From assembly GCA_035502095.1 (NCBI GenBank), contig DATJUX010000031.1, positions 1 to 18,804 on the forward strand: a stretch of DNA of 18,804 bases, written 5' to 3'. Positions within the stretch are counted from its first letter, which is position 1, and each line of letters begins with the position of its first letter. This DNA comes from Burkholderiaceae bacterium. GTDB lineage: Bacteria > Pseudomonadota > Gammaproteobacteria > Burkholderiales > Burkholderiaceae_F. The translations under genes and the position numbers were made by a program. The notes beneath the pieces are model-generated. The model saw nothing but the letters and a program-made list of their open reading frames with translations, had not been told where the DNA came from and searched no databases. Below are positions 1 to 18,804 of this stretch, piece by piece.

Positions 1-323
1 AGCGCCACCATGGACGGTCGGGCACCTCTCGCTTCCGCGCCCGGCAAAGAAAGCAAGACGAGCGCGAGCGCTGGCACGGTCGCGAGGTTTGAATGAGGAC
101 GCTTTAGCTCAAACCCGTCGTGCGCAACCACTGCGAATGCAATGAAATCTGAAGCCCTGAAGCTTCCTTCAGCGCTACTCAAGGCGAGCGTCCGCGTGGT
201 GGTGGCGTGGATTGCGCATGCGCAGGACCGCTGAACCGGAACGTGGCGAAACCGGCTGCCGCCGATGCCAAGCCAACCACGGCAAGAGCGAGGATGCGAC
301 GCATACCCGCATCCTACTTCGCT

Positions 324-348
324 CGTGGCACGGCGCCGTGCCGCCACG
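324..348 (-). terminator. GC-rich hairpin just downstream of the COG4315 gene stop. It is terminator-like but lacks a U-tract.
   Basis: CGTGGCACGGCGCCGTGCCGCCACG contains a perfect 16-nt palindrome GGCACGGCGCCGTGCC (327-342) nested within CGTGGC/GCCACG arms. It lies 14 nt after the stop at 362. Confidence 0.25.
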
Positions 349-361
349 TGCCGCAGATACT

Positions 362-721
362 CTAAGGCTTCGCGACGTGCCAGACGTTGTTGACGCCATC
401 TCCGGTCTTGTCGCCCATCTTCTGGTCCTTGCTCCACGAGTAGAGCGGCTTGCCCTTGTAGGCCCACTGCTTGGCGCCGTCGTCGCGTGTGATGACCGAC
501 CAGTCGCCGCTTGCCATGGCATTGCCGGTCGCCGCAAGCGGTGGCCAGTTCGTCGCACACGGCCCGTTGCAGGCGCTCTTGGCGCCGCTGTCCTTGTCGA
601 AGGTGTAGAGCGTCATGCCCGATGCGTTGACCAGCATGCCGTCGACGGTCTTTGCCGGTGCCTGCGCAAACGCCAGCGGCGCGAACAGTCCCAGCGCCAG
701 GAAACCGATGGCTCGTTTCAT
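362..721 (-). CDS. Secreted protein of the COG4315 / PF03640 'secreted repeat of unknown function' type (119 aa). The signal peptide ends AFA|Q and contains no lipobox Cys.
   Basis: ORF track 362..769 trimmed to the internal ATG at 719-721 (MKRAIGFLALGLFAPLAFAQ...). Strong SD GGAGAAACA immediately upstream on the minus strand. Motifs typical of the family recalled from memory: DGxxLvnasGmTLYtFdkD, CnGpCAtnWPP and WsWskdQ. High GC3 codon usage. Confidence 0.7.
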   Translation of the reverse strand: MKRAIGFLALGLFAPLAFAQAPAKTVDGMLVNASGMTLYTFDKDSGAKSACNGPCATNWPPLAATGNAMASGDWSVITRDDGAKQWAYKGKPLYSWSKDQKMGDKTGDGVNNVWHVAKP

Positions 722-783
722 TGTTTCTCCTCGTTCGAGTCGCGCGGATACGCCCGCACGTACTAACACAACAGCACAGCCCG

Positions 784-800
784 TGCGCGTATTCCGCGCA
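784..800 (-). terminator. Candidate intrinsic terminator after the flotillin gene: hairpin TGCGCG-tattc-CGCGCA followed on the minus strand by a UG-rich tract.
   Basis: Perfect 6-bp GC stem with a 5-nt loop, 33 nt downstream of the flotillin stop at 833. The minus-strand trail is cugugcuguuguguu, an imperfect U-tract. Confidence 0.3.
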
Positions 801-832
801 ACACTTTTCTCGATTTCGGCCAGAATGCCGCC

Positions 833-2788
833 CTATTCGCCACCGTGTCTCCCGTTGAGCGCTGTTGCCGCCGCACCCTGGCCGGCGAGAACGAGCGCCG
901 CGATGGCATCGACCGCATTGGCGCCCTTGCCGTCGCCGCCCACTACGACGTTCGGCACCACCTGCAGGCGCGCCTCGGCGATCGCCTTGGTGATCGCGGT
1001 GGCGATCTCCTGCGCCAGCCGGATCTGCGGCCCGCCGAACGCGTCGACCTGCTGCCGCGCCGCGGTGGCCGTCGCCGCGCCTTCCAGCTCGATGCGCCTC
1101 GCGTTGGCGGTGCCGATCGCCACGATCTTGTCGCCCTCGGCTTGCGCCACGGCGCGGATCTTCGCGGCTTCGGCCCTGCCCTGATTGCTCTGCCGGTTCA
1201 CCTCGGCCAGCCCGTTGTTCTCGGCGATGCCGATCGCGATCTTCGACTCCGTCAGGGTGCGCTGCTGCGCCGCCACCGCCTCGGCCTCGCGCAGCGAGCG
1301 TTCCCGCGTCGCGGCCTCTTCCTGGCGCTGGTAAGTCTCGAGCTTCTCGCGCGCGATCTGGCGGTCGCGCAGCTGGGTGAGGATCGTTTCGATCTGCCTG
1401 TCGCCCGCGGGAGACTGCGGCGTGCCGATCAGCACCTCCTGCAGCTCGAGGTTGTAGGCAGCGAACTTCTCGCGCATGTCTTCCAGCGCGCGTTTCTGGA
1501 TGTCGGCGCGCTCCTGCAGCAGCTCGATCAAGGTCTTGGTCTGCGCCGTATTCTTGAAATACGCCGACACCATCGGGTCGAGCGTCTGCTCGACCAGCTG
1601 CTGGATGTTGCCGAAGCGCTGGATCACGCGCGAGGCCTTCTTGTAGTCGATGTGCACGACGACCGACAGCGGCAGCGTCGGCTCGAACGCGTCGCGCGTG
1701 ATGAGCGAGATCTCCTTTAGGTTCTCGTCGAACTTCGAGCCCTGCTCACCGGCCTGCCACTTCAGGATGAAGTTCGTGGTGGGGACCTCGATCACCTTGC
1801 CCGCGTACGTGTTGAACGGGTACTTGCCGGGCAGCAGCGGCCGCTCCCAGACGCCGCGTTCGCCTTCCAGCACCAGCTCGCCGTGCTGGTAGTCCTCGCC
1901 CGAGAGGTCGGTGCCCTTGCGGCCCGTGTACGAGATCACGACGCCGACGTTGCCGATCGACACGACGGTCTTGGGAATGATGTCGACCGTCGCGAACAGG
2001 CGATTGAGGTAATAGGTGCCGTCGACCAGCACCTGTTGCTGGCGCCCGCGGTAGCCGGCGGACTGGATGAAGCGGTCCGGCTCCTGGAAGCTCGCGTGCG
2101 TGGAGTGGCCGTCGGTCTTCTGCCCGACCACCGGCGCGATCAGCTCGCCGACCGGCAGCGGCGGACCGTCGTGGACGGTGACCACGCCGAGCACGTCGTT
2201 CCTGCTGTCAATCATGAGCGGACGGAACCCGTCGCGCTCCTTGATCAGGGTCTGCATCGCACGGATCGCCTCGAAGTCGGACTCGGCGAGGCGGAGCGCG
2301 TAGACCTCGTTGTCGACCAGCACCACGAACTGCGCGGTGTTGATGGCATAAAGGCCCTCGCGCAGGATCCGGCGCTGCGGGCCCTTGTTGCCCGCGGCCT
2401 GCAGGAAGCCGCGCACGTCCTCGAAGCTTTGTCCTTCGACGCTCGAACCCAGCGTCTGCCCCGGCGGCAGCGGAATGCCGTCGCGCGCGAACACGTAACC
2501 GATCTCGCTCTGCGGCACGAAGACCAGGTTCTTCTTGTGCACGCGGTACATGAACGGAACCAGCAGGTGAAAGCCGCCGCGCAGCATCTCCGGCTCGAAA
2601 CCGGCTTCGCCGTTGAGGGCGATGATGCCGCCCTTGACCGAGCCCTTGGGCGACCAGAGTCGCTCCTTGATGCCGACCCGGTTGTTCGGCACGTAGACGA
2701 GCGCCGACTTGAGCAGGACCAGGGCGACCAGGGCGCCGAAAAGGATGAGCAGATTCGACCCGGTCAACACGTCGCTGAACGATGACAT
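833..2788 (-). CDS. Flotillin-like SPFH/band-7 family membrane protein (651 aa, YqiK/FloT-like). It has an N-terminal TM helix, an SPFH domain, and a long Ala/Glu/Gln-rich coiled-coil with a Gly/Ala tail.
   Basis: Full-length ORF. ATG at 2786-2788 is preceded by GGGAGGGAGG (SD) on the minus strand. The N-terminus LLILFGALVALVLL is hydrophobic. Internal KxxALxxMREKFAAYNLELQEVLIG and extended EA/QR-rich segments resemble flotillin C-terminal regions. This is a family-level assignment from memory. Confidence 0.8.
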   Translation of the reverse strand: MSSFSDVLTGSNLLILFGALVALVLLKSALVYVPNNRVGIKERLWSPKGSVKGGIIALNGEAGFEPEMLRGGFHLLVPFMYRVHKKNLVFVPQSEIGYVFARDGIPLPPGQTLGSSVEGQSFEDVRGFLQAAGNKGPQRRILREGLYAINTAQFVVLVDNEVYALRLAESDFEAIRAMQTLIKERDGFRPLMIDSRNDVLGVVTVHDGPPLPVGELIAPVVGQKTDGHSTHASFQEPDRFIQSAGYRGRQQQVLVDGTYYLNRLFATVDIIPKTVVSIGNVGVVISYTGRKGTDLSGEDYQHGELVLEGERGVWERPLLPGKYPFNTYAGKVIEVPTTNFILKWQAGEQGSKFDENLKEISLITRDAFEPTLPLSVVVHIDYKKASRVIQRFGNIQQLVEQTLDPMVSAYFKNTAQTKTLIELLQERADIQKRALEDMREKFAAYNLELQEVLIGTPQSPAGDRQIETILTQLRDRQIAREKLETYQRQEEAATRERSLREAEAVAAQQRTLTESKIAIGIAENNGLAEVNRQSNQGRAEAAKIRAVAQAEGDKIVAIGTANARRIELEGAATATAARQQVDAFGGPQIRLAQEIATAITKAIAEARLQVVPNVVVGGDGKGANAVDAIAALVLAGQGAAATALNGRHGGE

Positions 2789-2847
2789 GGGTGACCTCCC
2801 TCCCGAGATGGACCCGATCCGGCGATGCTTTTAGCGCAGTCGACGTA

Positions 2848-2877
2848 TGTGCGCCGTTAATTTCTTTCGTGCGCACA
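2848..2877. promoter_or_regulatory. Inverted repeat TGTGCGC-N16-GCGCACA with an AT-rich centre (cgttaatttctttcgt), 60-90 nt upstream of the flotillin start. It is a candidate operator.
   Basis: 7-bp perfect arms seen directly. It sits in the 183-nt intergenic region between the dehydrogenase stop and the flotillin ATG. Confidence 0.25.
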
Positions 2878-2939
2878 AGTGATTGAAGCCAAAGCGTTGC
2901 GCGAGCAATTCACGCCGCGCGCCTGCGCCCCCACCCCAA

Positions 2940-2959
2940 CCTCCCCGCCTGCGGGGAGG
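2940..2959 (-). terminator. GC hairpin (CCTCCCC-gcctgc-GGGGAGG) 13 nt downstream of the oxidoreductase stop. It is flanked by C-rich and G-rich runs and has no U-tract.
   Basis: Seen directly. ccccaccccaaCCTCCCCgcctgcGGGGAGGggg. It could be a Rho-independent-like or REP-like element separating the dehydrogenase from the flotillin gene. Confidence 0.2.
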
Positions 2960-2971
2960 GGGATACGGCGA

Positions 2972-3901
2972 TCAGATGAAATGCGGCGCGACGATGCGCC
3001 GCTCGCCGATCAGGAACGCATCCGCGACGAGTTGAAACGGCCGCCAGTCCACTTCCGACCTGGCCTCGGCGCAGAGCGCGGCGAAGCGCGCATACAAGCG
3101 TGGATATTCGCCCTCGAGGCCGCCGGCGGCCGACACGGCCCTGCCGTCGAGTTCGAGCGTCGCGCCGCCCTGCGAGAGTTTCAGCCGGCCGGAGGTGGTG
3201 ATGAGCTCGATGTCCCAACTCTGTTCGCCCTTCTGGCGGAAATCGAACTCGGCATCGACGGCGACGCCGGCTTCGCCACGCAGACGCAGGCTCGCCGCGA
3301 TCGGTGCCTGCTGGTTCTCCGGGAACTGCAGGACCGCGGTCTCGACACAGACCTCGTCCGCGAGCACTTCGGTGAGGACCGAGAGCGCGTTGATGCCGGG
3401 ATCGAACACGCCGAAACCGCCCGGCTCCCAGATCCACTGCTGCCCGGGATGCCAGTGATGCACGTCTTCCTTCCAGACGATCCGCCCGCCCGTGAGCGTG
3501 CGCCCGCGCAGCCACTCGCGCGCGGCGTCCACGCTCGCTGCGAAACGCGAGTGCCAGGTCTGGAACAGCGTGCGGCGGTGGTGCGCCGCCTCGTCGGCAA
3601 GCAGCGCGATCTGCCGCGTCGTCGCGGCGGGCGGCTTCTCGAGCATGACGTGCCGGCCCGCCCGCAACGCGGTGCGCACGGCGGCGAAGTGCGCCTGCGG
3701 CGGCGTGCAGATGGAGACGCAATCGAGTTGCGGCAGTCCCGCCAGCATCGCCTCGAGATCGGGAAAATTCGCCACCCCGTCGACCCTGGCGTTGCGGCTC
3801 GCGCAGGCGACGAGTTCGAATTGCCGGCTGGCCCTCAACGCCGGAATGTGTTGGTCGCGCGCAATCTTGCCAATCCCGACCAGGCCAAGTTTCAACGGCA
3901 C
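2972..3901 (-). CDS. Gfo/Idh/MocA-family NAD(P)-dependent oxidoreductase, similar to D-galactose or L-arabinose 1-dehydrogenase (309 aa, GTG start).
   Basis: N-terminal Rossmann motif LKLGLVGIGKIARDQHIPAL, then EKPPA and the downstream fold pattern typical of Gfo/Idh/MocA sugar dehydrogenases. The start codon is GTG at 3899-3901, with GGGGGAA (SD) 6 nt upstream. Stop is TGA at 2972-2974. Confidence 0.75.
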   Translation of the reverse strand: MPLKLGLVGIGKIARDQHIPALRASRQFELVACASRNARVDGVANFPDLEAMLAGLPQLDCVSICTPPQAHFAAVRTALRAGRHVMLEKPPAATTRQIALLADEAAHHRRTLFQTWHSRFAASVDAAREWLRGRTLTGGRIVWKEDVHHWHPGQQWIWEPGGFGVFDPGINALSVLTEVLADEVCVETAVLQFPENQQAPIAASLRLRGEAGVAVDAEFDFRQKGEQSWDIELITTSGRLKLSQGGATLELDGRAVSAAGGLEGEYPRLYARFAALCAEARSEVDWRPFQLVADAFLIGERRIVAPHFI

Positions 3902-4075
3902 GCCGATTCCCCCGATTGATTGCGCCCTCGCTCGAACCCGCCGGATTCACGCGCACCCGGCGCCCGGTTCGAGCCCTCCTCGCCCGCCGATCTTACCGAG
4001 GGGCCGCACGTCCCATCCGGGTTCGTCAAATCTCCGGCGCGACCAGCGCGTGCCGGTCGCGCCGCCGCCTGTCCG

Positions 4076-5323
4076 CTACGGATACGGCTGGAAGGCGAAG
4101 TACGGGCCGTTGCCCGCCGGCGTCGTGCTTTGCTCGAACGCGGTGAAAACGCTGTTGCCGAAGAAGGACGGCACGCCGAAGTCGAACGCATTGGTCAGCG
4201 TCGTCGCGGTCGGCCCGCCGAGATTGCTGAACGCGTTCAACGTGGAGGCGTTGGCCTGCGTGAGCAGGAACTGCGCGTTGGCGAGGGTCAGCGACGCGGT
4301 GGCGGTCGCGCCGTTGCTGCCGGTCAGGGCAACGCTGATCGGAGTGGCCGAGAGCGATGCCGCCGTGCCGGGACAGTAGAGGGAAGACAGCGTCGACGCC
4401 GGGCAGGTCGGGATGCTCGAGTCATCGAAATACAGCGCTGCCGAGCCGCTGTCGAAGAAGCTGTTGGCATACGTGTTGCCGTTGTAGACGGCCGTGAACG
4501 AACCGGCGCCGGCGCCGGACGCCGGCACGCCGATCGCCGCCGTGCTCAGCATGTTGTTGGTCTGGGTGCCGATGCCGAACAGCATTGTGCCGTTCGCCGA
4601 GGTCGCGCCGGTGGCGGCGACAGCGGGCAGCTGCAGCACGACGCCGTTGTTGTCCTGCGCGAAGAACCCGGCCGGGTTGCTCGGCTGCAGCGCAAGCGAG
4701 ATCGCGGCTTCGGTGCAGGTGCCGCCGCTCGTGCAGGTATAGAAGTACGGGCTGATGTTGAGCGCGCAATAGGGTCCGCAGTCCTGCAGGAACGTGCCGA
4801 TGCCGAGGATGCCGTTCGCGCCGAGTGCGGTGAGGCCGTCTTCCGCCGTGCCTTGCGACGCGCAGGTCGCGGGTATCGCCGGCCCGACGCCGTTGTCCTG
4901 GATCAGCTGGATCGACATGGAGGGTGCAACTTCACCCGCGAGTTGTACGTCGGCACTGGCGAGCGGTCCCCACACGAATCCATCGGCGAAGGTCGCGCAT
5001 TCGCTGTAGTTGCCGCCGCTGCCGGCGACGGCGGGCAGCGCAAGCGTCACCGCCGATGCGAGCAGGCGCAGGCCGGTGGAGCCGGTATCGACCTGCACGT
5101 CGGGGATGGTCTGGCACGCTCCGGTCCCGGGAACGCAGATCGTCACTGACGTCGTCATCATGTTCGCGAACTCGCCGGTGGGACCGCCGCTCACGATGAT
5201 GGGCTGCGTATTGGAGACCGGGCCCGTGGCGCCGTTCGACGCCGAGGTCGGTGCCCCGTTGCCGCCGCACGCGACGAGCAGCGCGACGAGCGACGCGAGC
5301 GCGGTGAACCGGAGCGCTCTCAT
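4076..5323 (-). CDS. Lipoprotein carrying the motif set of a bilobed pepsin-like (A1-type) aspartic protease (415 aa). It possibly corresponds to a DUF3443-type protein.
   Basis: Track ORF 4076..5539 trimmed to the ATG at 5321-5323 (MRALRFTALASLVALLVAC, lipobox LVAC with Cys19). GGGAG lies 9 nt upstream. Motifs were checked codon by codon: VQVDTGSTG (D79 at 5087-5089), GILGIGTF (res 171-178), FFDSGSAAL (D291 at 4451-4453) and the C-terminal FFGNSVFTAFE. These match FDTGSS, DGILGLAY, IVDTGTS and ILGDVFIRQYF of pepsin. There are many Cys residues. Confidence 0.65.
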   Translation of the reverse strand: MRALRFTALASLVALLVACGGNGAPTSASNGATGPVSNTQPIIVSGGPTGEFANMMTTSVTICVPGTGACQTIPDVQVDTGSTGLRLLASAVTLALPAVAGSGGNYSECATFADGFVWGPLASADVQLAGEVAPSMSIQLIQDNGVGPAIPATCASQGTAEDGLTALGANGILGIGTFLQDCGPYCALNISPYFYTCTSGGTCTEAAISLALQPSNPAGFFAQDNNGVVLQLPAVAATGATSANGTMLFGIGTQTNNMLSTAAIGVPASGAGAGSFTAVYNGNTYANSFFDSGSAALYFDDSSIPTCPASTLSSLYCPGTAASLSATPISVALTGSNGATATASLTLANAQFLLTQANASTLNAFSNLGGPTATTLTNAFDFGVPSFFGNSVFTAFEQSTTPAGNGPYFAFQPYP

Positions 5324-5787
5324 CGGATCGCTCCCAGCGACACGGTCGCGGGCACGAGTTCGGGGAGATACGCTCTGCCGGCGAAGGCGCGCATGCGACC
5401 GCCCGATTCGATCACGAGGTCCGGTGCATGCACCGCCAGCATGCGGTGGTCGGCATGCCGTTGCCTGCCTGCGGCGACGACACGCGGGAAGTAGTCGCCG
5501 AGAAGCTGACTCAGGTCGGGCTTGAAGGGTCCCCGCCACGTCACCGCGAACACCGCGCCCGACGGCGCCAGGAACTCGCGCACCACGGTGCCCGAGTTGA
5601 GCGTGAGCTCGTGCACCGCGTAGCCCGCGCGCGAGCTCGTGACGTGCTGAACCGCCTGCAGCTTGACGGCATCGTCCTGCAGGGTCGTGGCCGCACCACC
5701 CAGCGCAGCCGCGGCCGGCGAGGTCGCCAATCCGGCTGCCGCCAGCAGCGGCAGCCAGCGGACGAGGTAAGTCGACGACAGATTCAT
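5320..5787 (-). CDS. Small secreted protein (155 aa), possibly DUF2844-type, translationally coupled to the downstream pepsin-like lipoprotein.
   Basis: Track ORF 5320..5871 trimmed to the ATG at 5785-5787 (MNLSSTYLVRWLPLLAAAGLATSPAAAALGG, signal peptide with AxA site). AAAGGAA (SD) lies 3-4 nt upstream, with GGAG further up. The TGA stop at 5320-5322 overlaps the ATG at 5321-5323 of the next gene (ATGA). Confidence 0.6.
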   Translation of the reverse strand: MNLSSTYLVRWLPLLAAAGLATSPAAAALGGAATTLQDDAVKLQAVQHVTSSRAGYAVHELTLNSGTVVREFLAPSGAVFAVTWRGPFKPDLSQLLGDYFPRVVAAGRQRHADHRMLAVHAPDLVIESGGRMRAFAGRAYLPELVPATVSLGAIR

Positions 5788-5976
5788 TTCCTTTGCTCCG
5801 TGAATCGAGCGCGCCGTCCTGGCGCAGCAGTCCAATCCAATCGCATCGACGGCGAATTCGCCATCACGCATCGGCGCGCCGACGCTCAGATGACACCTGA
5901 ACCGAAGCGCTCGGCCGCTTGTCAGATTGTTGCCGGATCCTGACGCGAGCGCAGCGTGCGCGCAGGCACGCCGGAC

Positions 5977-6735
5977 TCAGTACAGCGACTCGACGTCGCT
6001 TGCCAGCCGGTAGCCGGCGCCGCGCTCGGTGACGATGAGCGTGGGGTTGGCGCGCGCGGGTTCGATCTTGTCGCGCAGCCGGCGCACCTGGACATCGATG
6101 GTGCGGTCGTAGACCTCGGCCTCGTGCAGGCGCGACATCGAAAGCAGCTGATCGCGCGTGAGCACGCGTTGCGGCGCGCGGCAGAACGCGGCGAGCAGGC
6201 TGAACTCACCATTGGAAAGCTCGACCAGCTGGCCCGTGGGCGACGTGAGCCGCCGCGTGCGCAGGTTCAGCTCCCAGCCGGAGAAGCGGAATGCGCGCCG
6301 CGCGCTGTCGCGCTCCGGGAGGGTGGCCTGCACGTGGTAGCGCCGCAGCACGGCGCGCACGCGTGCCAGCAGTTCGCGCGCGCTGAACGGCTTCGTCACG
6401 TAGTCGTCGGCGCCGAGTTCGAGTCCCATCACGCGGTCGGCCTCTTCGCTGCGGCCGGTGAGGAGCACGATCGGCACGGTGCCCCGCTCGCGCAACCTGC
6501 GCGCCAGCTGCATCCCGTCCTCGCCCGGCAGCTTCAAGTCGAGCAGCACGAGGTCGATCGCCTCGCGATCGAGCACTTCGAACATTTCGCGGCCCGACGC
6601 GCGTGCCGTCACGCGCATGTCGTTCTTGCCGAAATACTCCGCGACGAGCTCGCGGATGTCCGCGTCGTCGTCGATCACGAGGACATGCGGCAGTGTCGTG
6701 GCGATGCTGGGCGCGGCGGCGGGATCGGCGGGCAT
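5977..6735 (-). CDS. OmpR/PhoB-family two-component response regulator (252 aa). It is an orphan: no cognate kinase is adjacent.
   Basis: Receiver motifs VLVIDDDADIREL, LVLLDLKLPGEDG and TKPF, followed by a winged-helix DNA-binding output (LTxxEFxLLxxF...TIDVQVRRLRDKIE...RGAGYRL). The track ORF carries an implausible Arg/Ser-rich 186-aa extension. The first in-frame ATG before the receiver is at 6733-6735, with a weak SD. Confidence 0.85.
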   Translation of the reverse strand: MPADPAAAPSIATTLPHVLVIDDDADIRELVAEYFGKNDMRVTARASGREMFEVLDREAIDLVLLDLKLPGEDGMQLARRLRERGTVPIVLLTGRSEEADRVMGLELGADDYVTKPFSARELLARVRAVLRRYHVQATLPERDSARRAFRFSGWELNLRTRRLTSPTGQLVELSNGEFSLLAAFCRAPQRVLTRDQLLSMSRLHEAEVYDRTIDVQVRRLRDKIEPARANPTLIVTERGAGYRLASDVESLY

Positions 6736-6982
6736 GGCGCGAACAATCGTAGCCGATGCCGCGCACAGCTCCGGTGCGGCGGCGTGGCATGACTTCTCGC
6801 CCAACCCGCTCCAGCAGCACGGGCTGGCGCGCCTGCACGCATCGTGACGTTCCCGCTCGCGCGCGGTGGATTGGCACCGATGCCGCCACCCTCGCTCGTC
6901 ACAGCCGATCTGAGTGGCGGGCCGCCGTTCAGCCTTCGCGCTCGGCGAACGGCGGCGCCGGCGCGATCGGTCCGCTCGGGAA

Positions 6983-7333
6983 CTACCGGCGCGGCGCCCA
7001 ATAACCCTGGCGCAGGTGCCAGCCCGCACCGCTATGCACCCAGACGCTGGGTTCCCAGTAGTAACCGGGCCGCGGTGCGCTCCAGTGACCCGCGACCCAG
7101 ACGTGCCTGCCGCCCACCCAGTTCCAGTAGCCGCCGATCCAGATGTAGCCCGGCACCGGCGCGACGCCCATGAACTCGGCCTGCGGCGGCGGCGGCGCCA
7201 TGCCGATGGGCTCGCCTGGCGGCGGCGGCGCGACCGGCACGACGCAGCCCGCCAGGCCCGCGAACAGCACGATCGAAAGCGCAGCCAAGGCACCGCGCAG
7301 GGATTGCTTGTTTCGTGTAGTCGACACGCTCAT
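6983..7333 (-). CDS. Small lipoprotein with a polyproline segment and W-x-x-G-x-W / YxW repeats (116 aa, WXXGXW-repeat type).
   Basis: Trimmed to the ATG at 7331-7333 (MSVSTTRNKQSLRGALAALSIVLFAGLAGC, lipobox LAGC), with AGAGGA (SD) 6 nt upstream. The mature part is PVAPPPPGEPIGMAPPPPQ followed by GYIWIGGYWNWVGGRHVWVAGHW ... GYYWEPSVWVHSGAGWHLRQGYW. Confidence 0.65.
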   Translation of the reverse strand: MSVSTTRNKQSLRGALAALSIVLFAGLAGCVVPVAPPPPGEPIGMAPPPPQAEFMGVAPVPGYIWIGGYWNWVGGRHVWVAGHWSAPRPGYYWEPSVWVHSGAGWHLRQGYWAPRR

Positions 7334-7533
7334 CGAGATTCCTCTGAAGTTGGTGACAAATCGCAACCGCCGCCCTCCTCGCGACGCACGCGTACTGACG
7401 CAACGGCGGCGGGCGGACGACGGACGACATGCGTACGTACTACCGCCGCGTCGTCTGTCACAAGAGGCCCGCAGTGCCGCGCGCCTCCTCCCTCGCCGTC
7501 CGCCGCGGGCCAGAGAGGGAATGGTCACGTCAG

Positions 7534-8118
7534 TCACGAGCACGTGACGAGCATCGTCATCGATCCGCCGGCGGCGATGGTCCCGCTTCCGTTCCTGACG
7601 ACGCAGGTCTGGCCCGCGGGTTGCACCGCGACCGTGACGTCGTAGGCGGTGCCCACGGGCAGCGTGCCGGGGAACGCGAACGCACCGTTGACATCGACCG
7701 GCAGCGGGGTCGTTCCGTTGGCAAGCGTGACGCTCGTGCCCGGCGCGAGGCCGGAGATCGTGCCGCCGAGCGACGACGTCGTGGTGCACGTCACCGCGAC
7801 GTTGTCGACCGGATCCCCTTGCGCATCGAGGGTGCCGCTGCCGTCGGCGACGGCGCATGTCTGGCCCGCGGGCTGCGTGAGCACCGTGATGCTGTATGTG
7901 CTGCCCCCGGGCACGACGGTCGGAAAGTGAAACGCGCCGTTTTCGGTCAGCGTCAGGTTGTCATCGCCATTGTTCTGCAGCGTCACGCTGGCACCCGGGT
8001 TCAATCCCGACAGTGCGCCGCCGACGCTGGTCAGGTTGTTGCCGGTACAGGCGGCGAGGGCAAGCGACAGCGAGACGGCGATGCCCCGCGCGCGGATCGA
8101 TACGCGCATGAGCGTCAT
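7534..8118 (-). CDS. Lipoprotein built from two tandem ~80-aa Cys-containing repeats (probable Ig-like beta-sandwich domains), 194 aa.
   Basis: Lipobox LALAAC. Repeat 1 is LSGLNPGASVTL...NGAFHFP...YSITVLTQPAGQTCAVADGSGT...VAVTC. Repeat 2 is ISGLAPGTSVTL...NGAFAFP...YDVTVAVQPAGQTCVVRNGSGT...MLVTC. It starts 12 nt after the htrA-like stop at 8131. The alternative start M4 (8107-8109) is possible. Confidence 0.6.
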   Translation of the reverse strand: MTLMRVSIRARGIAVSLSLALAACTGNNLTSVGGALSGLNPGASVTLQNNGDDNLTLTENGAFHFPTVVPGGSTYSITVLTQPAGQTCAVADGSGTLDAQGDPVDNVAVTCTTTSSLGGTISGLAPGTSVTLANGTTPLPVDVNGAFAFPGTLPVGTAYDVTVAVQPAGQTCVVRNGSGTIAAGGSMTMLVTCS

Positions 8119-8130
8119 GCCGGTGGCCGT

Positions 8131-9585
8131 CTACCCCAGGCGCACGGGCACGTACATCCTCTGGTCGCCGCGCTGGACCAGAAGCGCCACCGCGTTGTCG
8201 AGCCGGCCGAACGCCGCATTCGCGTGCTCGACGCTCGTCACCGGGTGGCCGTCGACGGCGAGGACGATATCGCCCGGTTGCAGGCCCGCGCGTGCAGCCG
8301 GGCCGCTCACCGCTTCGAAGAGCAGTCCGAACGCGACGCCCGACTGGCGACTCTCCTCGGCTTGCAACGGGCGCAGAGCGAATCCCAGCCTGCCTCGTGC
8401 GATCGGAACGGCAATCGTCGCTTGCGCGGACGCCGGCGGCGGTTCCTCCAGCCGAAGGTGTACCGAGCGCGGCGCACCCGCGTGCCAGAGGTCGAGCGTC
8501 AGCTCGTCGCCGGGCTGCGCCAGGCCAAGCATGGCCGGCAGCTCGCCCGACGACTCGATCGCATGTCCGTTGACCGCCAGCACGATGTCGCCGCTCTGCA
8601 GCCCGGCGGTTTCGGCCTGGCTGCCCTGCTCGACGCTCGCGATCAGCGCGCCGCCTGGCCTGGCGAGCTTGAATGCTTCGGCGAGCGTCTGATCGACCTC
8701 CTGCACGGCGACCCCGAGCTTGGCGTGGTGCACCACGCCGCTCTTGAGGATCTGCTGCGCGACGCGCTGCGCGATGTCGATCGGAATCGCGAACGAGAGC
8801 CCCTGGTATCCGCCGGAGCGCGTGTAGATCTGCGAGTTGATGCCGACCACTTCGCCGCGCAGGTCGATCAGAGGGCCACCCGAGTTGCCCGGGTTGATCG
8901 CGGCGTCGGTCTGGATGAATGGAACGAAATCGCCCGGCAGCGACCGGCGCGTGGCACTGATCACACCCACCGTGACGGTGTTCTCGAAGCCGAACGGCGA
9001 ACCGATCGCGAACACCCAGTCGCCGACGCGCAGCGGCGTCTGCGCGGAGGCGAGGGCGGCGACCGGCAGGTCGCGCGCTTCGATCTTCAGCACGGCCACA
9101 TCGGAGGGTCTGTCGAGCCCGACGATCCTGGCGCGAAACTCGCGACGGTCGGTGAGCTTGACGATCACCTCCTGGGCGTCGTTCACCACGTGGGCGTTAG
9201 TGAGGACGACGCCGTCGCCGCGGACGATGAAGCCGGAGGCCTGCACCTGCAGCGGCACGCTGATCTTCGGCGGCAGGCCGCCGAACTGCTGCTGGAAGCG
9301 GCGCAGGAAGTCGCGCATCGGGTCGACGTCGGGCGCGTCGTCGCCGTCGTCGTCGGCATCGGCGACCGTCGCGATGTCGCGGCTGCCGCTTGCCGTAATG
9401 TTCACCACGCTCGGGCCGACGCGGGCCGCGAGGCCGGCGATGTCCGGCAACGCCGCCGGCCCGGCTGCAGTCGCCGCGGTCCGTTTGCCGTCGGGCGGCT
9501 GTGCGGAGGCCTCGGCCCGCGCGCACGCGACGGGACCGGCACAAAAAAGCGTGAAGGCTGCGCACAGCGCCAGGTTGCGCCACAT
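8131..9585 (-). CDS. DegP/HtrA (Do/MucD-type) periplasmic serine endoprotease with two PDZ domains (484 aa).
   Basis: Track ORF 8131..10014 trimmed to the ATG at 9583-9585 (MWRNLALCAAFTLFCAGPVACA, signal peptide), with GGGAG 10 nt upstream. The catalytic triad is in canonical context: TNAHVV (His), DVAVLKI (Asp) and GNSGGPL (Ser). Two PDZ-like segments follow (GALIASVEQGSQAETAGLQSGDIVLAVNG and AVSGPAARAGLQPGDIVLAVDG). An acidic insert DADDDGDDAPDVDP precedes the protease domain. Confidence 0.9.
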   Translation of the reverse strand: MWRNLALCAAFTLFCAGPVACARAEASAQPPDGKRTAATAAGPAALPDIAGLAARVGPSVVNITASGSRDIATVADADDDGDDAPDVDPMRDFLRRFQQQFGGLPPKISVPLQVQASGFIVRGDGVVLTNAHVVNDAQEVIVKLTDRREFRARIVGLDRPSDVAVLKIEARDLPVAALASAQTPLRVGDWVFAIGSPFGFENTVTVGVISATRRSLPGDFVPFIQTDAAINPGNSGGPLIDLRGEVVGINSQIYTRSGGYQGLSFAIPIDIAQRVAQQILKSGVVHHAKLGVAVQEVDQTLAEAFKLARPGGALIASVEQGSQAETAGLQSGDIVLAVNGHAIESSGELPAMLGLAQPGDELTLDLWHAGAPRSVHLRLEEPPPASAQATIAVPIARGRLGFALRPLQAEESRQSGVAFGLLFEAVSGPAARAGLQPGDIVLAVDGHPVTSVEHANAAFGRLDNAVALLVQRGDQRMYVPVRLG

Positions 9586-9845
9586 GCCAGAAGCTCCCGG
9601 GCGGCGCGCAGTCTGCGGCGCTCTGAGTCCCGCCCGATGGCAAATGCCACACAATCCGAGACAAGTGTCGCGCAAGGGGAGCCCGCAAGGTAAACGCAAG
9701 CTGAACGACCGTCCCGCAACGGGAAATGGTCGTGCTCCGATCCACGGCGCCGCTTCTCCGGTTGTGGAGCGGTGTTGCAGCCCGCGCCCGCGTTGTGCGA
9801 TCCGCACCGGCAGGCGCAACCCACGCAGGCGCGAGCGCGGCGGAA

Positions 9846-10307
9846 TCAACCGGGCTCGCTCTCGCTGCGGACGGACTCGGCGCGGCGACCCTGCAAGCGC
9901 TGCACGAGCATCGCGACCAGTACCGCGGCCGCCGCCGAGGCGGCGGTGGCAGGGGAAGCCATGAGCGCGGGCCCCAGCCAGTCGACCGCGTCGAGGCCCG
10001 CCTCCTGCGCGCAATCGGCAAGTGCGACCACGTCCGCACTGCGCACGTGCGCGATGTCATCGGGACGCACCACCGGGTCCTGCAGGCCGCCGCGCAACCG
10101 CATCCGCGCGAACACGCCGTTGGCGATGGCAGAGAGCGCCAGCACGCCCAAGGGGCGCAGCAACGCCTCGATCATGTAGCCGCGCTCGGCCGGCGGTGCA
10201 TCCTCGTAGACCTTGCCCACCAGCTGCGCGACCGTCAGTTCCGACACCTCGAACGCCGGTTGCGGGGACCGGGTCTCGACGGGGACCGCGCGAAGATCGA
10301 CCTTCAT
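9846..10307 (-). CDS. Hypothetical protein (153 aa) with no recognisable family, lying between the hybrid kinase and the htrA-like gene.
   Basis: Complete ORF with ATG at 10305-10307. Strong GC3 bias (nearly every codon ends in G or C) and no low-complexity Arg runs, unlike the antisense artefacts. The SD is weak (AAGG). No signal peptide is evident. Confidence 0.4.
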   Translation of the reverse strand: MKVDLRAVPVETRSPQPAFEVSELTVAQLVGKVYEDAPPAERGYMIEALLRPLGVLALSAIANGVFARMRLRGGLQDPVVRPDDIAHVRSADVVALADCAQEAGLDAVDWLGPALMASPATAASAAAAVLVAMLVQRLQGRRAESVRSESEPG

Positions 10308-10466
10308 GATCGCCTTGCTGCCGTCGCCTCCATGGCGCGCGTCGCAATTGTTGTACGCGACCTATGCGCCGCCGCGACGAAACGCCGCCGCGTGCGTGTC
10401 ATCTGACTTGGAATCGCATCTCACGCGTCACGCACCGGGCTGCACCGGCGCGCGCGCCGCTGCGGC

Positions 10467-12539
10467 TCAGCGCAGCAGGTCGGCGAGCGCGCGCGCGAGG
10501 TCGACGCGCTGCAATGGCTTGGCGAGCACGCGTGTCACGCCCACCGCGGCCGCGCGTGCTGCGAGCAAGGCGCCGCCGTAGCCGCTGACGAGAAGCACGG
10601 GCACGCTCGGCGCCACCGCGCGCAGCTGCTCGGTGAACTGCGTCCCGTTCAGGCGCGGCATCACTTCGTCGGTGATGACCGCGGCGAAACGCTCGGGCTG
10701 GGCGCGCACCGCGTGCAATGCCTCGACCGAATCGCTGAAGCCGATCGGCTGGTAGCCCAGTCCTTCGAGCATCTCCTGCGCGAGCGCGACCAGCGCGGGC
10801 TCGTCGTCGACCACCAGCAGCGCCTGTCCCGCACCGCGCGGGGCGAGTACCGGCGGCGGCGCGGGTGCGCCGAGCGCCGCGGCGGTCTCGGGAAAATAGA
10901 GCGTGAAGCGCGCGCCCTGCCCGGGTTTGCTCTGCACGTCGATCGCGCCGCCGAATTCGGCGATCACGCCGTGCACGACGGCGAGCCCGAGCCCGGTGCC
11001 CGACTGGTCGCCGCGCGTGGTGAAGAAAGGCTCGAACAACCGCTCCATCACCGCGGTGGAGATGCCCTTGCCCTGGTCCGAGATCGACAGCGCGAGGTAG
11101 TCCCCTGCCCCGAGGCGGCTGTGCGACAGCACGCGCGTTGCCGCCACGTGCGCGCGCGCCAGGCCGACGCTGACGGTGCCGCCTTCCGGCATCGCCTGCA
11201 TCGCGTTCGTGCAGAGGTTCATGATCGCCTCGAAGGCCTGGGTGGGATCGCCGCGCACGTTGCCACCAGCCGCATCGAGGGCGCGCTCGAGCACGATGCC
11301 GGGCCGCAGCGAACCGGAAAGCAGCGTCAGCACCTCGCTCACCACTGCTTCGAGCTCGAACACGGTCGACGTGCGCGCGCCGCCCCGGCTGAACGCGAGG
11401 ATCCGCTCGGACAGCGCCTTCCCGCGCAGCGCGGCCCGCATCACCTTGTCGAGCTGCCGCGCCTGGTCGCTGCCGGGCGGTGCGGAATCCTGCGCCAGTT
11501 CGCCGAAGCCGATGATCGACGCGAGCAGGTTGTTGAAGTCGTGCGCCACGCCGCCCGCCAGCGTCCCCAGCGATTCGAGCTTGCTCGCGCGCGCGCGTTG
11601 CGCGTGCAGCGCACGCTGCGCCTCCAGCCGGCGGCGGTCGGCGCGTTGCACGAGATGCACCGACGCAACCAGGATCGCGAGCAGGATCACCGTCCCTGCC
11701 GCGGCGACGCCGGCCGCCTGCTGCCAGGGCGCGAGCACCGCCGGCAGATCGCGCGTGAGCACGACGCTCAGGCCGTATCGCTGCAAGGCGTGGAAGCTCA
11801 CCAGCCGTTCGCTGCCGTCGTGGAACTTGCGCACCTCCATGCCGCGCATGACGGCCAGCCGTTGCGCCACGGTAGCTTCATCGAGCCGCGGGTTGGCCAC
11901 GATCGAGCCGGCGAGACGCACGCCGTCGTCGCGGAACACGGCCATCCGCGCGTCGGACGCGGGCGAAGCCGCCGAGAACGCGCCGAGCAGCGCCGGCGCC
12001 GGCAGCGCCGCGAGGATCCACCCATCGGTGGCACCTTGCGGGCCCGTGAAGCGATAGGCGAGCGCGACCACCGACTGTTTTGCGCCCGGTTCGATGAACG
12101 GGCGGCTCACAGCGAGCGTGCGGTCAGCCAGCCGGCCGAGCGCGGGCTGGAACGACTGCAGGTCGGGCGGCGGCGCCTCGGCCGATGCCGACAGCACGCG
12201 GCCGGTGTGGTCGACCAGCCAGAGCGTCTGCACGAGCGGCATCAGCTGGGCGCGGGTCTGCAGCGCCTCCGCCGCGTCGGCGCCGAGCAGCGTCGCCGGG
12301 TGTTCGCGCAGTTCTTCGCTGATCGCGCCGAGGCCCGCTTCGGCGCCTCTCAGCCCGCGGTCCAGGTCGTCGGTCAACGCGAGCGAAAGCAGTCCGAGTT
12401 CGCGCGCCTGCACGTCGACCGCGTCGCCGCGCAGATGCCAGAGCAGGACCGCAGCCGCGGCGGCCGCGGCCAGCGCGATCCCGAGCGCCGCCCACGTCAG
12501 GGGCGACACGTTCAGCAGTTTCGAGATCACGCCTTTCAT
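10467..12539 (-). CDS. Hybrid sensor histidine kinase (690 aa). It has two TM helices flanking a ~240-aa periplasmic sensor domain, a HisKA domain, a HATPase_c domain and a C-terminal receiver domain. There is no Hpt domain.
   Basis: Track ORF trimmed to the ATG at 12537-12539 (MKGVISKLLNVSPLTWAALGIALAAAAAAAVLLW). The second TM is AAGVAAAGTVILLAILVASVHLV. H-box is LAGGVAHDFNNLLASI, N-box is NLCTNAMQAM, G-boxes are DQGKGI and GTGLGLAVV. The receiver has LLVVDDEP, VITDEVMP and LAKP. Confidence 0.85.
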   Translation of the reverse strand: MKGVISKLLNVSPLTWAALGIALAAAAAAAVLLWHLRGDAVDVQARELGLLSLALTDDLDRGLRGAEAGLGAISEELREHPATLLGADAAEALQTRAQLMPLVQTLWLVDHTGRVLSASAEAPPPDLQSFQPALGRLADRTLAVSRPFIEPGAKQSVVALAYRFTGPQGATDGWILAALPAPALLGAFSAASPASDARMAVFRDDGVRLAGSIVANPRLDEATVAQRLAVMRGMEVRKFHDGSERLVSFHALQRYGLSVVLTRDLPAVLAPWQQAAGVAAAGTVILLAILVASVHLVQRADRRRLEAQRALHAQRARASKLESLGTLAGGVAHDFNNLLASIIGFGELAQDSAPPGSDQARQLDKVMRAALRGKALSERILAFSRGGARTSTVFELEAVVSEVLTLLSGSLRPGIVLERALDAAGGNVRGDPTQAFEAIMNLCTNAMQAMPEGGTVSVGLARAHVAATRVLSHSRLGAGDYLALSISDQGKGISTAVMERLFEPFFTTRGDQSGTGLGLAVVHGVIAEFGGAIDVQSKPGQGARFTLYFPETAAALGAPAPPPVLAPRGAGQALLVVDDEPALVALAQEMLEGLGYQPIGFSDSVEALHAVRAQPERFAAVITDEVMPRLNGTQFTEQLRAVAPSVPVLLVSGYGGALLAARAAAVGVTRVLAKPLQRVDLARALADLLR

Positions 12540-12787
12540 ACGCTGTGGTTGGCCGCGAAACAGCGCCGCCCGCTGCTCTCCCCGCGGCTCATCGCCCGGG
12601 CCGCGCCCATCGATGTGTCGACGCGCTGCACACTCCCCTGATCGACAGCCCGAGGTGCGCCTCCGCGGGTCGGTATTTCGACGCGGACATTCAATCGCCC
12701 TTCCCGCTCCAGCCAGTGGCCCGCCGAACGCCGCCGATCCTGCCAAGCCCCGTGGCGGGTTTCGGTGTCAGGCCGGAGCAGGGCTTG

Positions 12788-12842
12788 TGACATTTGACCC
12801 AAGCGGGTAACGCCCGCCGTTTTGGTTCGGGGTCATTTGTCA
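12788..12842. promoter_or_regulatory. Two copies of a CATTTG-centred 11-nt motif (TGACATTTGAC at 12788-12798, GTCATTTGTCA at 12832-12842), 44 nt apart, in the divergent HK/efflux intergenic region. A candidate extended -10 (TGgTTAAAT, 12892-12900) lies downstream.
   Basis: Seen directly. The 442-nt intergenic region lies between the hybrid HK start (12539) and the OMF start (12982). Confidence 0.2.
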
Positions 12843-12981
12843 TCGAAGCACCCGCACCTTGTAACACACGTGTCCCGGTGAACGCTCAGGCTGGTTAAAT
12901 GAGTGTCTTCGGACTTCCTTTGCTCCGCTTCATGACGATCGCCATGAACCCGCCCTGCGCTGCAAGCACGCCGTCCGCGCC

Positions 12982-14409
12982 ATGTCCCGACGTCACCGGC
13001 TTGCGTGCCTGACGGCTGCGGCAGGGTTTCTTGCCGGCTGCGCGGCGGGTCCTGACTACGTCCGCCCTCGCATCGAGGCGCCCGCCGCCTACAAGGAGGC
13101 CGGCCCTTGGAAAGACGCCGAGCCGAGCCAGGTCGACGCCGCGCACCCGTGGTGGACCCAGTACGGCGACGACAAGCTGAACGAGCTGATCGACGAAGCC
13201 AACAAGGCCAACGAGAACATCCGCCTTGCCGAGGCGCAATACCGCGCGGCACGCAGCGCGACGGACGCCGCCCGCGCCGGCTACTACCCGACGCTGGGTG
13301 CGACCGCCGCCGCCGGACGCGCGCGTACGATCTCGAATGGCGTGATCGAGCTCGGCAACTCGGCGAGCGTCGCGCTCGTCACGAGTTGGGAGCCCGACCT
13401 GTGGGGCAGCGTGCGCCGCTCGGTCGAGGCGGGTACGGCCGGCGAGCGTGCGAGCGCGGCCGACCTGGCCGCCGCGCGCCTCAGCGTGCAGGCGCAGCTG
13501 GCGCAGGACTATTTCCTGCTGCGCGCCACCGACGAAGGTATCGACCTGTTCGCCCGTACCGTCGAGGCCTACACGCACGCGCTGAAGCTGACGCAGGACC
13601 AGTACAAGGCGGGCATCGTCCTGCGCTCGGACGTCGCGCTTGCCGATACGCAGTTGCAGTCCGCCGACGCGCAGCGCATCGACCTGCTGGCGCAGCGCGC
13701 GCAACTCGAGCACGCCATCGCTTTCCTGCTCGGCCGTGCGCCCGCTACCTTCACGCTGCCGCCGGCCCAGCCCACGGCGCGCATCCCGGTGACGCCCGCC
13801 GGCGTGCCGTCCGACCTGCTCCAGCGCCGGCCCGACATCGCAGGCGCGGAACGCCGGGTCGCACAAGCCAACGCGAACATCGGCGTGGCCCGCGCGGCGT
13901 ATTTCCCCAGCCTGGTGCTCGCGGCGAGCGGCGGCTACGACAGCAGCCACCTCGCTCCGCTGCTCGAGGCACCGGTCCGGGTCTGGTCGCTCGGTGCGGC
14001 GCTTGCGGGCACGCTGTTCGACGGCGGCCTGCGCGCCGCACGCGATGCGCAGGCGGTCGCAGCGTACGACGCCACCGTGTCGCAATACCGGCTTACCGTG
14101 CTCGGGGGCTTCCAGGAGGTCGAAGACAACCTGGCCACCCTGCGCGTGCTCGACGAGGAAGCGACCGTGCAGGAGCGCGCGGTCCAGTCCTCGCAACTTT
14201 CGGAACAGATGGCCCTCAGGCAGTACCGCGCCGGCACGGCGACGTACCTCGCGGTCGTCACCGCGCAGACCCTGGCGCTCGGCAACGAGCGCACGCTGGT
14301 CCAGCTGCGCGCGCGCCAGCTCGTGGCCTCCGTGGCGCTGGTCAAGGCGACGGGCGGCGGCTGGGAAACCGCGATGCTTGAAACGGAAGCGGCCGCGCCG
14401 GCACGCTGA
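12982..14409 (+). CDS. RND efflux outer-membrane factor lipoprotein (NodT/OprM family, 475 aa).
   Basis: Lipobox FLAGC. The AAGPDYVRP motif follows immediately after the lipid-modified Cys, which is the hallmark of OMF lipoproteins. Two TolC-like repeats and QAQLAQDYF / LRQYRAGTATYLAV signatures are present. TGA stop at 14407-14409. Confidence 0.9.
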   Translation: MSRRHRLACLTAAAGFLAGCAAGPDYVRPRIEAPAAYKEAGPWKDAEPSQVDAAHPWWTQYGDDKLNELIDEANKANENIRLAEAQYRAARSATDAARAGYYPTLGATAAAGRARTISNGVIELGNSASVALVTSWEPDLWGSVRRSVEAGTAGERASAADLAAARLSVQAQLAQDYFLLRATDEGIDLFARTVEAYTHALKLTQDQYKAGIVLRSDVALADTQLQSADAQRIDLLAQRAQLEHAIAFLLGRAPATFTLPPAQPTARIPVTPAGVPSDLLQRRPDIAGAERRVAQANANIGVARAAYFPSLVLAASGGYDSSHLAPLLEAPVRVWSLGAALAGTLFDGGLRAARDAQAVAAYDATVSQYRLTVLGGFQEVEDNLATLRVLDEEATVQERAVQSSQLSEQMALRQYRAGTATYLAVVTAQTLALGNERTLVQLRARQLVASVALVKATGGGWETAMLETEAAAPAR

Positions 14410-14429
14410 TTCGAACTCGAGAGGCATCC

Positions 14430-18757: not shown

Positions 18758-18786
18758 ACCCGCGACGCAGGTCGCCGATCGGGCGG

Positions 18787-18804
18787 TGCCGGGGCGCCCC
18801 GGCA
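18787..18804 (+). terminator. Perfect 18-nt palindrome TGCCGGGGCGCCCCGGCA 30 nt after the RND permease stop. It is a putative terminator stem, truncated by the window end.
   Basis: Seen directly. The downstream U-tract cannot be assessed because the window ends. Confidence 0.3.

Follow-up and report, generated by a model that had tools for sequence, protein, structure and literature searches.

Pepsin-like proteases of bacteria and the DUF3443 family

Active members of peptidase family A1 are defined by Asp32, Tyr75, Asp215 and two psi-loop hydrophobic-hydrophobic-Gly motifs; a survey of 960 prokaryotic genomes found homologues of pepsin in no more than 7, each without a signal peptide and predicted to be cytoplasmic (Rawlings & Bateman 2009, PMC2761423). 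The shewasins, recognisable by their A1 sequence and found in seven species only (PMC2761423), possess both catalytic aspartates and a proven pepstatin-sensitive activity, and shewasin D was shown to be cytoplasmic (PMC4814920). Outside the cytoplasm, mycobacteria possess the surface pepsin-like protease PecA (PMC6819658), and periplasmic retropepsin-like enzymes are known from bacteria (PMC11957051). Here, we analysed an 18,804-nucleotide stretch of a Burkholderiaceae bacterium (contig DATJUX010000031.1, positions 1 to 18,804, hereafter the window) containing a gene for a lipoprotein of the family DUF3443, which lies directly behind a DUF2844 gene. We propose, on the basis of a structural model and of conserved motifs, that the DUF3443 product is an envelope-anchored aspartic endopeptidase with a bilobed pepsin fold; its activity is probable, and we put the probability of this reading at roughly 0.78.

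A preliminary description of this DNA had pointed to a pepsin-like lipoprotein at positions 4076-5323 and had suggested that it might belong to DUF3443. The open reading frame (ORF) is real, is read on the minus strand and gives a product of 415 amino acids, and the suggestion was right: the whole protein corresponds to Pfam DUF3443 (PF11925), the only family matched in the Pfam scan, and scores 379.9 bits where 25 would suffice (E=1.5e-113), aligning to positions 3-367 of the 367-position model. One homologue, HTT12228.1 from a Burkholderiaceae metagenome-assembled genome (MAG), shares its 90%-identity cluster, and public sources name the homologues 'DUF3443 family protein', 'DUF3443 domain-containing protein' or 'hypothetical protein' only. 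NCBIfam holds no model for the DUF3443 or the DUF2844 product, and PADLOC returned no defence-system match for either. Our literature search found no paper that mentions DUF3443, DUF2844, PF11925 or 9iy9, the PDB entry of a B. fragilis protein, and none that describes a lipoprotein pepsin-like protease in Gram-negative bacteria. The earlier remark that shewasin-type homologues are cytoplasmic and without signal peptide agrees with the published work (PMC2761423, PMC4814920); the statement made with it, that it would be exceptional for a bacterial pepsin to be exported, largely holds for Gram-negative bacteria but is tempered by PecA (PMC6819658) and by the periplasmic retropepsin-like enzymes (PMC11957051).

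Predicted fold and catalytic motifs

The protein was modeled with AlphaFold2 on an alignment of 115 sequences, with a mean predicted local distance difference test score (pLDDT) of 93.3 and a predicted template modelling score of 0.88. A Foldseek search of the PDB with this model returned 464 matches at E<=0.001. Every one of the first 50 is an aspartic protease of family A1; among these are rhizopuspepsin (E=5.5e-10), endothiapepsin, BACE1, pepsin, renin and plasmepsins, and the pepsin-like fold first proposed from motifs is thus borne out at the level of prediction. Structurally, fungal pepsins match best, at 14-20% identity once superposed, and the highest structure-based identity (22%) is with a bacterial protein, PE_PGRS16 of Mycobacterium tuberculosis (PDB 4ehc). 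Beyond the motifs, the sequence had been considered low-complexity; Ala, Gly, Ser and Thr do make up 49% of it, but this is not disordered filler, 371 of the 415 residues having a pLDDT of at least 90, and the model is uncertain only in the signal peptide and tether (residues 1-37).

Conservation was assessed in three independent samples: 115 homologues of close to medium similarity, 83 proteins taken from genomes that each represent a species, and 150 rows made up of the query and 149 representatives of clusters at 50% identity. The four motifs of the preliminary description are exact in position: VQVDTGSTG at residues 76-84 (D79), GANGILGIGTF at 168-178, FFDSGSAAL at 289-297 (D291) and FFGNSVFTAFE at 387-397. 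D79 and D291 are each conserved in 100%, 100% and 99% of the three samples, respectively (149 of 150 rows in the last). Next to D79, T80 is conserved at 98-100%, G81 at 92-99%, with rare A, M or Q, and S82 at 98-99%. On the C-lobe side, position 292 is Ser or Thr in all sequences except for one Ala in the 150-row sample, G293 is conserved at 100%, and S294 at 93-99%, the alternative being mostly Thr. Further invariant or near-invariant residues are R86, F112 (Phe 98% and Tyr 2% of the 83 sequences; 138 Phe and 9 Tyr in the 150 rows), W118-G119, G174 (100% in all three samples), D181 and G383. The hydrophobic-hydrophobic-Gly motif of the N-lobe psi-loop is clearly I172-L173-G174, while for the C-lobe both F382-G383 (100%) and F388-G389 (96-99%) are candidates between which the sequence alone is indecisive; the C-lobe psi-loop glycine may be the invariant G383, in D-F-G, rather than G389, to which the preliminary description had pointed. 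The strict retention of the D-T/S-G-S pair argues for catalysis and not for a mere scaffold. A minority of the family carries D-T-A-S, D-T-M-S or D-T-Q-S in the N-lobe and keeps D291-S/T-G-S, and in these G81 variants activity may be altered or lost.

For comparison at the sequence level, we used porcine pepsin, penicillopepsin and endothiapepsin, whose sequences were confirmed to be identical to the PDB chains 1psa/1f34, 1apt and 1e5o. In a single pre-specified comparison, hhalign aligned a 200-sequence DUF3443 alignment to the three pepsins with P=0.0094. With permissive thresholds the alignment is collinear over 295 columns (query 45-408, pepsin 2-325) and pairs D79-T-G-S with D32-T-G-S of pepsin, R86 with W39, N170-G-I-L-G with D118-G-I-L-G, D291-S-G-S with D215-T-G-T (S294 at T218) and VFTAFE with YTVFD; it also places F112 (CATFA) on Y75 (SITYG), in a region of low alignment confidence. 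When the N-lobe profile of DUF3443 was aligned to its own C-lobe profile (P=0.0049), both D-[TS]-G-S motifs fell in register; this is the internal duplication by which bilobed pepsins are defined.

Several observations weigh against this assignment. The profile comparison that the preliminary description had proposed as a check gave no significant match to the pepsin families: none of the 115 members matched Asp (PF00026), TAXi_N or TAXi_C at E<=10; in the same lax Pfam scan the retropepsin models did not match any of them either. Searches of all PDB sequences, with the window protein by phmmer and with the 115-sequence profile by hmmsearch, gave no relevant match, including none at the sequence level to the PE_PGRS proteases (4ehc); the sole hit, to an ATP synthase (E=0.78), was dismissed as chance. 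Against a single pepsin sequence, the hhalign probability of the profile is 1.3%; against the three pepsins it is 4%, and the improved P of 0.009 would still not be significant as a database search. A few members have A, M or Q in place of G81, and Phe and Arg occupy the positions of Tyr75 and Trp39, so that the flap mechanics should be unlike those of classical pepsins. The juxtaposition of Asp79 and Asp291 is deduced from the two-lobe superposition of the model and from the collinear alignment, and we found no enzymatic evidence for any DUF3443 member. The kinship of DUF3443 with pepsins is thus seen in structure and is invisible to ordinary sequence searches, and it is the fold and the catalytic residues that support the interpretation.

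Set beside the A1/PF00026 pepsins of MEROPS (polyporopepsin 1wkr, penicillopepsin 1apt, endothiapepsin and porcine pepsin), DUF3443 has the same bilobed fold in its model and the Asp32 and Asp215 motifs, one per lobe, but has no significant sequence similarity to them, no prosegment or zymogen form, Phe112 for the flap Tyr75 and Arg for Trp39. It also differs in being lipid-anchored, by prediction, where the pepsins are soluble secreted enzymes, in having ten conserved cysteines at positions unlike those of the three pepsin disulfides, in an inter-aspartate spacing longer by about 30 residues and in its obligate DUF2844 partner gene. Because of the missing sequence similarity, the missing prosegment and the Phe at the Tyr75 position, we file DUF3443 as a new pepsin-fold family of clan AA and not in A1.

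The shewasins A and D are likewise bacterial, bilobed and without prosegment, whereas DUF3443 proteins are predicted to be exported, lipidated and disulfide-rich, escape A1 profiles and occur in thousands of lineages. PecA (PE_PGRS35) is restricted to mycobacteria and is exported by type VII secretion through its N-terminal PE and PGRS domains, not as a lipoprotein; the window protein, in contrast, has a lipoprotein signal peptide and no PE or PGRS domain, and PecA is not known to have a DUF2844-like partner. The retropepsin-like envelope proteases, such as PA0462/Rlo of Pseudomonas aeruginosa and APRc of Rickettsia, have a single lobe and must dimerise, whereas the two lobes of DUF3443 are fused.

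Predicted lipid anchor, partner gene and genomic context

The N-terminus of the DUF3443 product, MRALRFTALASLVALLVAC19GGNG, confirms the lipobox reported at Cys19: a positively charged n-region (M-R-A-L-R) is followed by a hydrophobic stretch (LVALLVA) and by L-V-A-C, in agreement with the lipoprotein pattern [LVI][ASTVI][GAS]-C. C19 is conserved in 97% and G20 in 96% of the 115-sequence alignment, and most genome homologues have [LVI]xx-C-GGG lipoboxes. By the usual Lol rule, the Gly at +2 probably directs the protein to the outer membrane. The first beta-strand of the domain begins at residue 39 of the model, and just 18 low-confidence residues separate it from Cys19, which leaves no prosegment. 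Some relatives carry Ig-like spacers (Big_2, DUF11, ASH/DUF1573) at the position of this tether, an arrangement typical of cell-surface or extracellular proteins; five of them (P0244, P0271, P0288, P0317 and P0362) have 100-1,400 extra N-terminal residues with Ig-like domains (Big_2, I-set-like, DUF11, ASH/DUF1573). Another member, P0299, has a C-terminal extension of about 550 residues without Pfam match.

Cysteines had been described as clustering near the first catalytic aspartate; instead, the ten that are conserved in the three homologue samples (63, 70, 109, 154, 182, 186, 197, 203, 307 and 317) are spread over residues 63-317, and their invariance fits an oxidising compartment. The mature window protein (residues 20-415) lacks Lys and His altogether and retains one Arg, the invariant R86, beside 12 Asp and 6 Glu. 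In this it goes beyond even porcine pepsin, which has 1 Lys, 2 Arg and 1 His; across the family, the median is 12 basic versus 23 acidic residues. We read this low-basic composition as a pepsin-like signature of an acid-adapted protein. Together with the frequency of the family in peat, bog and acid environments, it would fit an enzyme active in an acidic periplasm.

The second gene of the pair encodes a small secreted protein, 100% identical to a 155-aa protein of a Burkholderiaceae MAG. Its predicted mature N-terminus is a near-invariant (A/S/T)-L-G-G, in which L29 and G30 are invariant, and A27, the last residue of the signal peptide, is conserved at >=90% (alignments A2 and A3). In 81 of 84 DUF3443-centred loci, the next gene upstream, on the same strand, is DUF2844. 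In one of the other three the contig ends too early; the remaining two, L005 (Curvibacter MAG) and L053 (Ferrovaceae MAG), are real exceptions, with sufficient contig and no upstream DUF2844 even at E<=10. Conversely, DUF3443 is directly downstream in 72 of 80 DUF2844-centred metagenome loci, the other 8 having less than 250 nt of contig left, so that there is no counter-example among loci with enough contig. Between the stop and the start, the -4 overlap seen in the window is the most frequent spacing (21 loci), other common values being -1 (7 loci) and 9-14 nt (17 loci), and the two genes are, from this arrangement, predicted to be translationally coupled. In L053 and L077, the DUF3443 frame runs on upstream of the domain with a conserved segment that is not a lipobox, which suggests a different N-terminal architecture. 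Two tandem DUF3443 genes with near-identical signal peptides stand behind one DUF2844 gene in a gammaproteobacterial MAG (L068, 3668-6441).

A profile search of 1.84 billion cluster representatives recovered 2,900 DUF3443 clusters (50% identity) at E<=0.001, of which 1,625 at E<=1e-30, and at least 568 loci were found in species-representative genomes. Among the matches listed are Terriglobia, Vicinamibacteria, Burkholderiales (Paraburkholderia, Trinickia, Pararobbsia, Curvibacter and Ramlibacter), Steroidobacteraceae, Ferrovaceae, Neisseriaceae, Myxococcales and Competibacter; many of the listed records bear bog, palsa or SPRUCE labels or taxon names in Acido- or Ferro-. Cultured carriers include Burkholderia thailandensis, B. 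cenocepacia, B. glumae and B. vietnamiensis, and the annotation of the pair in B. thailandensis (DUF3443 WP_045598844.1, with WP_045598846.1) and B. glumae goes no further than DUF2844 and DUF3443.

Clustering of neighbours over 81 loci and four long contigs revealed no third conserved gene beside the pair, only lineage-specific neighbours (FkbO-like, beta-propeller lipoprotein, BamC, GGDEF). In the Burkholderia lineage, the pair adjoins a divergently transcribed bamC, coding for an outer-membrane protein assembly lipoprotein. An ISL3 transposase separates the two on the B. thailandensis plasmid p2002721643 (L167, 1-4113); in six other Burkholderia and Paraburkholderia loci, a lipoprotein cluster recurs at the bamC position. 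In the window, the minus-strand genes from 5977 to 12746 look like an envelope-stress neighbourhood (Table 1). A conserved unit of the OmpR, hybrid-kinase and DegP genes with the pair was considered and rejected as a general feature because the recurrence of regulator and hybrid kinase is limited to Caenimonas; both flank the pair in Caenimonas terrae and not in other relatives.

Table 1. Positions in the window of the DUF2844-DUF3443 pair, its sequence features and the surrounding genes
Feature	Position	Strand	Description or basis
DUF3443 gene	4076..5323	-	415-aa lipoprotein, bilobed pepsin-like fold (predicted); stop codon included
C-terminal segment D381-F-G383...F387-F-G389-N-S-V-F-T-A-F-E397	4133..4183	-	putative C-lobe psi-loop and final strand; conservation, alignment
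C-lobe catalytic motif D291-S292-G293-S294	4442..4453	-	aligns to pepsin D215-T-G-T
N-lobe psi-loop motif N170-G-I-L-G174-I-G176	4796..4816	-	aligns to pepsin D118-G-I-L-G-L
Predicted flap beta-hairpin, residues 104-128	4940..5014	-	F112 at pepsin Tyr75 position; model strands 104-112 and 115-128
N-lobe catalytic motif D79-T80-G81-S82	5078..5089	-	aligns to pepsin D32-T-G-S
Flexible Gly/Ser/Ala/Thr tether, residues 20-37	5213..5266	-	from anchor to catalytic domain; pLDDT 53-75 for residues 1-40
Type-II signal peptide, residues 1-19	5267..5323	-	lipobox L16-V17-A18-C19, Gly at +2; read from sequence, conservation
ATGA overlap	5320..5323	-	DUF2844 stop / DUF3443 start, GGAG 9 nt upstream; sequence read
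DUF2844 gene	5320..5787	-	155-aa secreted protein; Pfam PF11005, E=3.2e-40
DUF2844 signal peptide, residues 1-27	5707..5787	-	A-x-A site; cleavage predicted by the A-x-A rule
OmpR-type response regulator	5977 to ~6700	-	upstream of the pair, same strand
WXXGXW-repeat protein	6983-7858	-	upstream of the pair
DegP/HtrA-like serine protease, two PDZ domains	8131-10014	-	upstream of the pair
Hybrid histidine kinase	10467-12746	-	upstream of the pair
Outer-membrane factor (OEP)	12982-14409	+	tripartite resistance-nodulation-division (RND) efflux operon, 12982-18757
Membrane-fusion protein (HlyD family)	14430-15611	+	same RND operon
AcrB-family pump	15296-18757 (ORF)	+	same RND operon; true start probably later

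Owing to the high G+C content, many long spurious ORFs overlie real genes on both strands. Such is the 409-aa antisense ORF at 3920-5149 (+), which crosses the DUF3443 gene, and the plus-strand frame of 4076-5323 gives an Arg/Gly-rich translation that is likewise a GC-rich artefact. An in-frame upstream extension from a GTG (4076-5539, minus strand, 487 aa) finds no support, because the homologues begin at the lipoprotein signal peptide.

Proposed mechanism, alternatives and significance

We propose that the DUF3443 precursor is exported and would be lipid-modified at Cys19 of its lipobox, and that, given the Gly at +2, the Lol machinery would sort it to the outer membrane. The 18-residue tether would then keep the roughly 375 residues of the catalytic domain in the periplasm or on the cell surface, where the ten invariant cysteines could form up to five disulfides in an oxidising compartment. 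Asp79 and Asp291, one from each of the two homologous lobes, would, as in pepsin, activate water for peptide-bond hydrolysis beneath a predicted beta-hairpin flap, with Phe112 corresponding to Tyr75. The enzyme may work when acid outside the cell also acidifies the periplasm. With low confidence, and by analogy, we consider DUF2844 a dedicated partner: this secreted 13-kDa protein might control or assist the protease in trans, as an inhibitor or as a foldase in place of the missing propeptide. Operon-encoded pairs of protease and inhibitor are known, such as the serralysin-type AprA with its periplasmic inhibitor AprI, or staphopain with staphostatin, and the locus resembles such pairs in that a small secreted beta-rich protein is encoded beside an exported protease and co-expressed with it.

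As regards catalysis itself, the same fold would be expected if DUF3443 did not cleave peptides and served as an envelope binding or inhibitor protein, like the xylanase inhibitor TAXI of plants, soybean basic 7S globulin or Bla g 2, an allergen of cockroaches, with DUF2844 as its ligand or co-receptor. We hold this to be unlikely: both D-T/S-G-S motifs are kept at 99-100% in about 350 sequences from two phyla, together with the 'fireman's grip' Thr/Ser and the Ser that follows each Gly, a selection expected for catalysis and not for a scaffold. Non-catalytic pepsin homologues, by comparison, have degenerate catalytic motifs. Nor does the flap residue speak for a binding protein, as the change from Tyr75 to Phe also occurs in some bacterial A1 homologues (PMC2761423).

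The origin and the very existence of the pepsin fold in this family can also be questioned. The rank of fungal pepsins as best structural matches, and the fact that horizontal transfer was considered for some bacterial pepsin homologues by Rawlings and Bateman (PMC2761423), would suit an ordinary divergent A1 member acquired from a eukaryote, for example a fungus, and no bacterial lineage of its own. Such an acquisition is very unlikely, however, given that no PF00026 similarity was found in any of the 115 members, that the family is large (some 2,900 clusters and at least 568 genomes at species level) and, as seen, exclusively bacterial, and that, among the matches listed, it spans Acidobacteriota, Beta- and Gammaproteobacteria and Myxococcales. 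The bacterial lipobox, the cysteine pattern of its own, the bacterial partner gene and the higher identity to the mycobacterial PE_PGRS16 stand against it as well. The composition of the protein and the failure of the sequence searches against pepsins could, finally, be taken to mean that the tetrapeptide motifs arose by chance in a protein of low complexity and that the AlphaFold model is wrong. We find this hardly credible: with the protein's own composition, D-[ST]-G-[ST] is expected about 0.06 times per 415 residues and two copies have P of about 0.002, which, with the conservation across three sets of homologues, makes a chance origin of the motif pair improbable. An active, envelope-anchored aspartic endopeptidase therefore remains our preferred reading.

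A bolder version of this proposal, which we regard as rather doubtful, is that DUF3443 and DUF2844 form an ancient, widespread and hitherto unrecognised two-component bacterial 'pepsin system', in which DUF2844, as a co-translated periplasmic protein with a gene of its own, takes the place of the prosegment and folds the protease, silences it until the envelope acidifies, or both. If this were true, pepsins would include a deep bacterial lineage instead of being a eukaryotic invention with rare bacterial strays, and the event of lobe duplication and fusion would move into bacteria.

The pepsin fold itself is known, and the assignment of folds to DUFs from AlphaFold models is now routine, so that curators may have noticed that of DUF3443 without publishing it; what would be new here is a lipid-anchored, prosegment-free bacterial family with this predicted fold and with an obligate partner. 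Pepsin-like (A1) proteases are regarded as essentially eukaryotic, and the model of DUF3443 points to the complete bilobed architecture, its catalytic dyad intact, in Acidobacteriota and Proteobacteria, which touches on the long-standing question of the time at which the two-lobe pepsin gene originated. The locus may also offer a case in which the function of a protease 'propeptide' is supplied in trans. For DUF3443 and DUF2844 there is now a concrete hypothesis open to testing by mutagenesis, that of an envelope acid protease, and the abundant bacteria of soil and peat as well as Burkholderia species would gain a new class of envelope protease.

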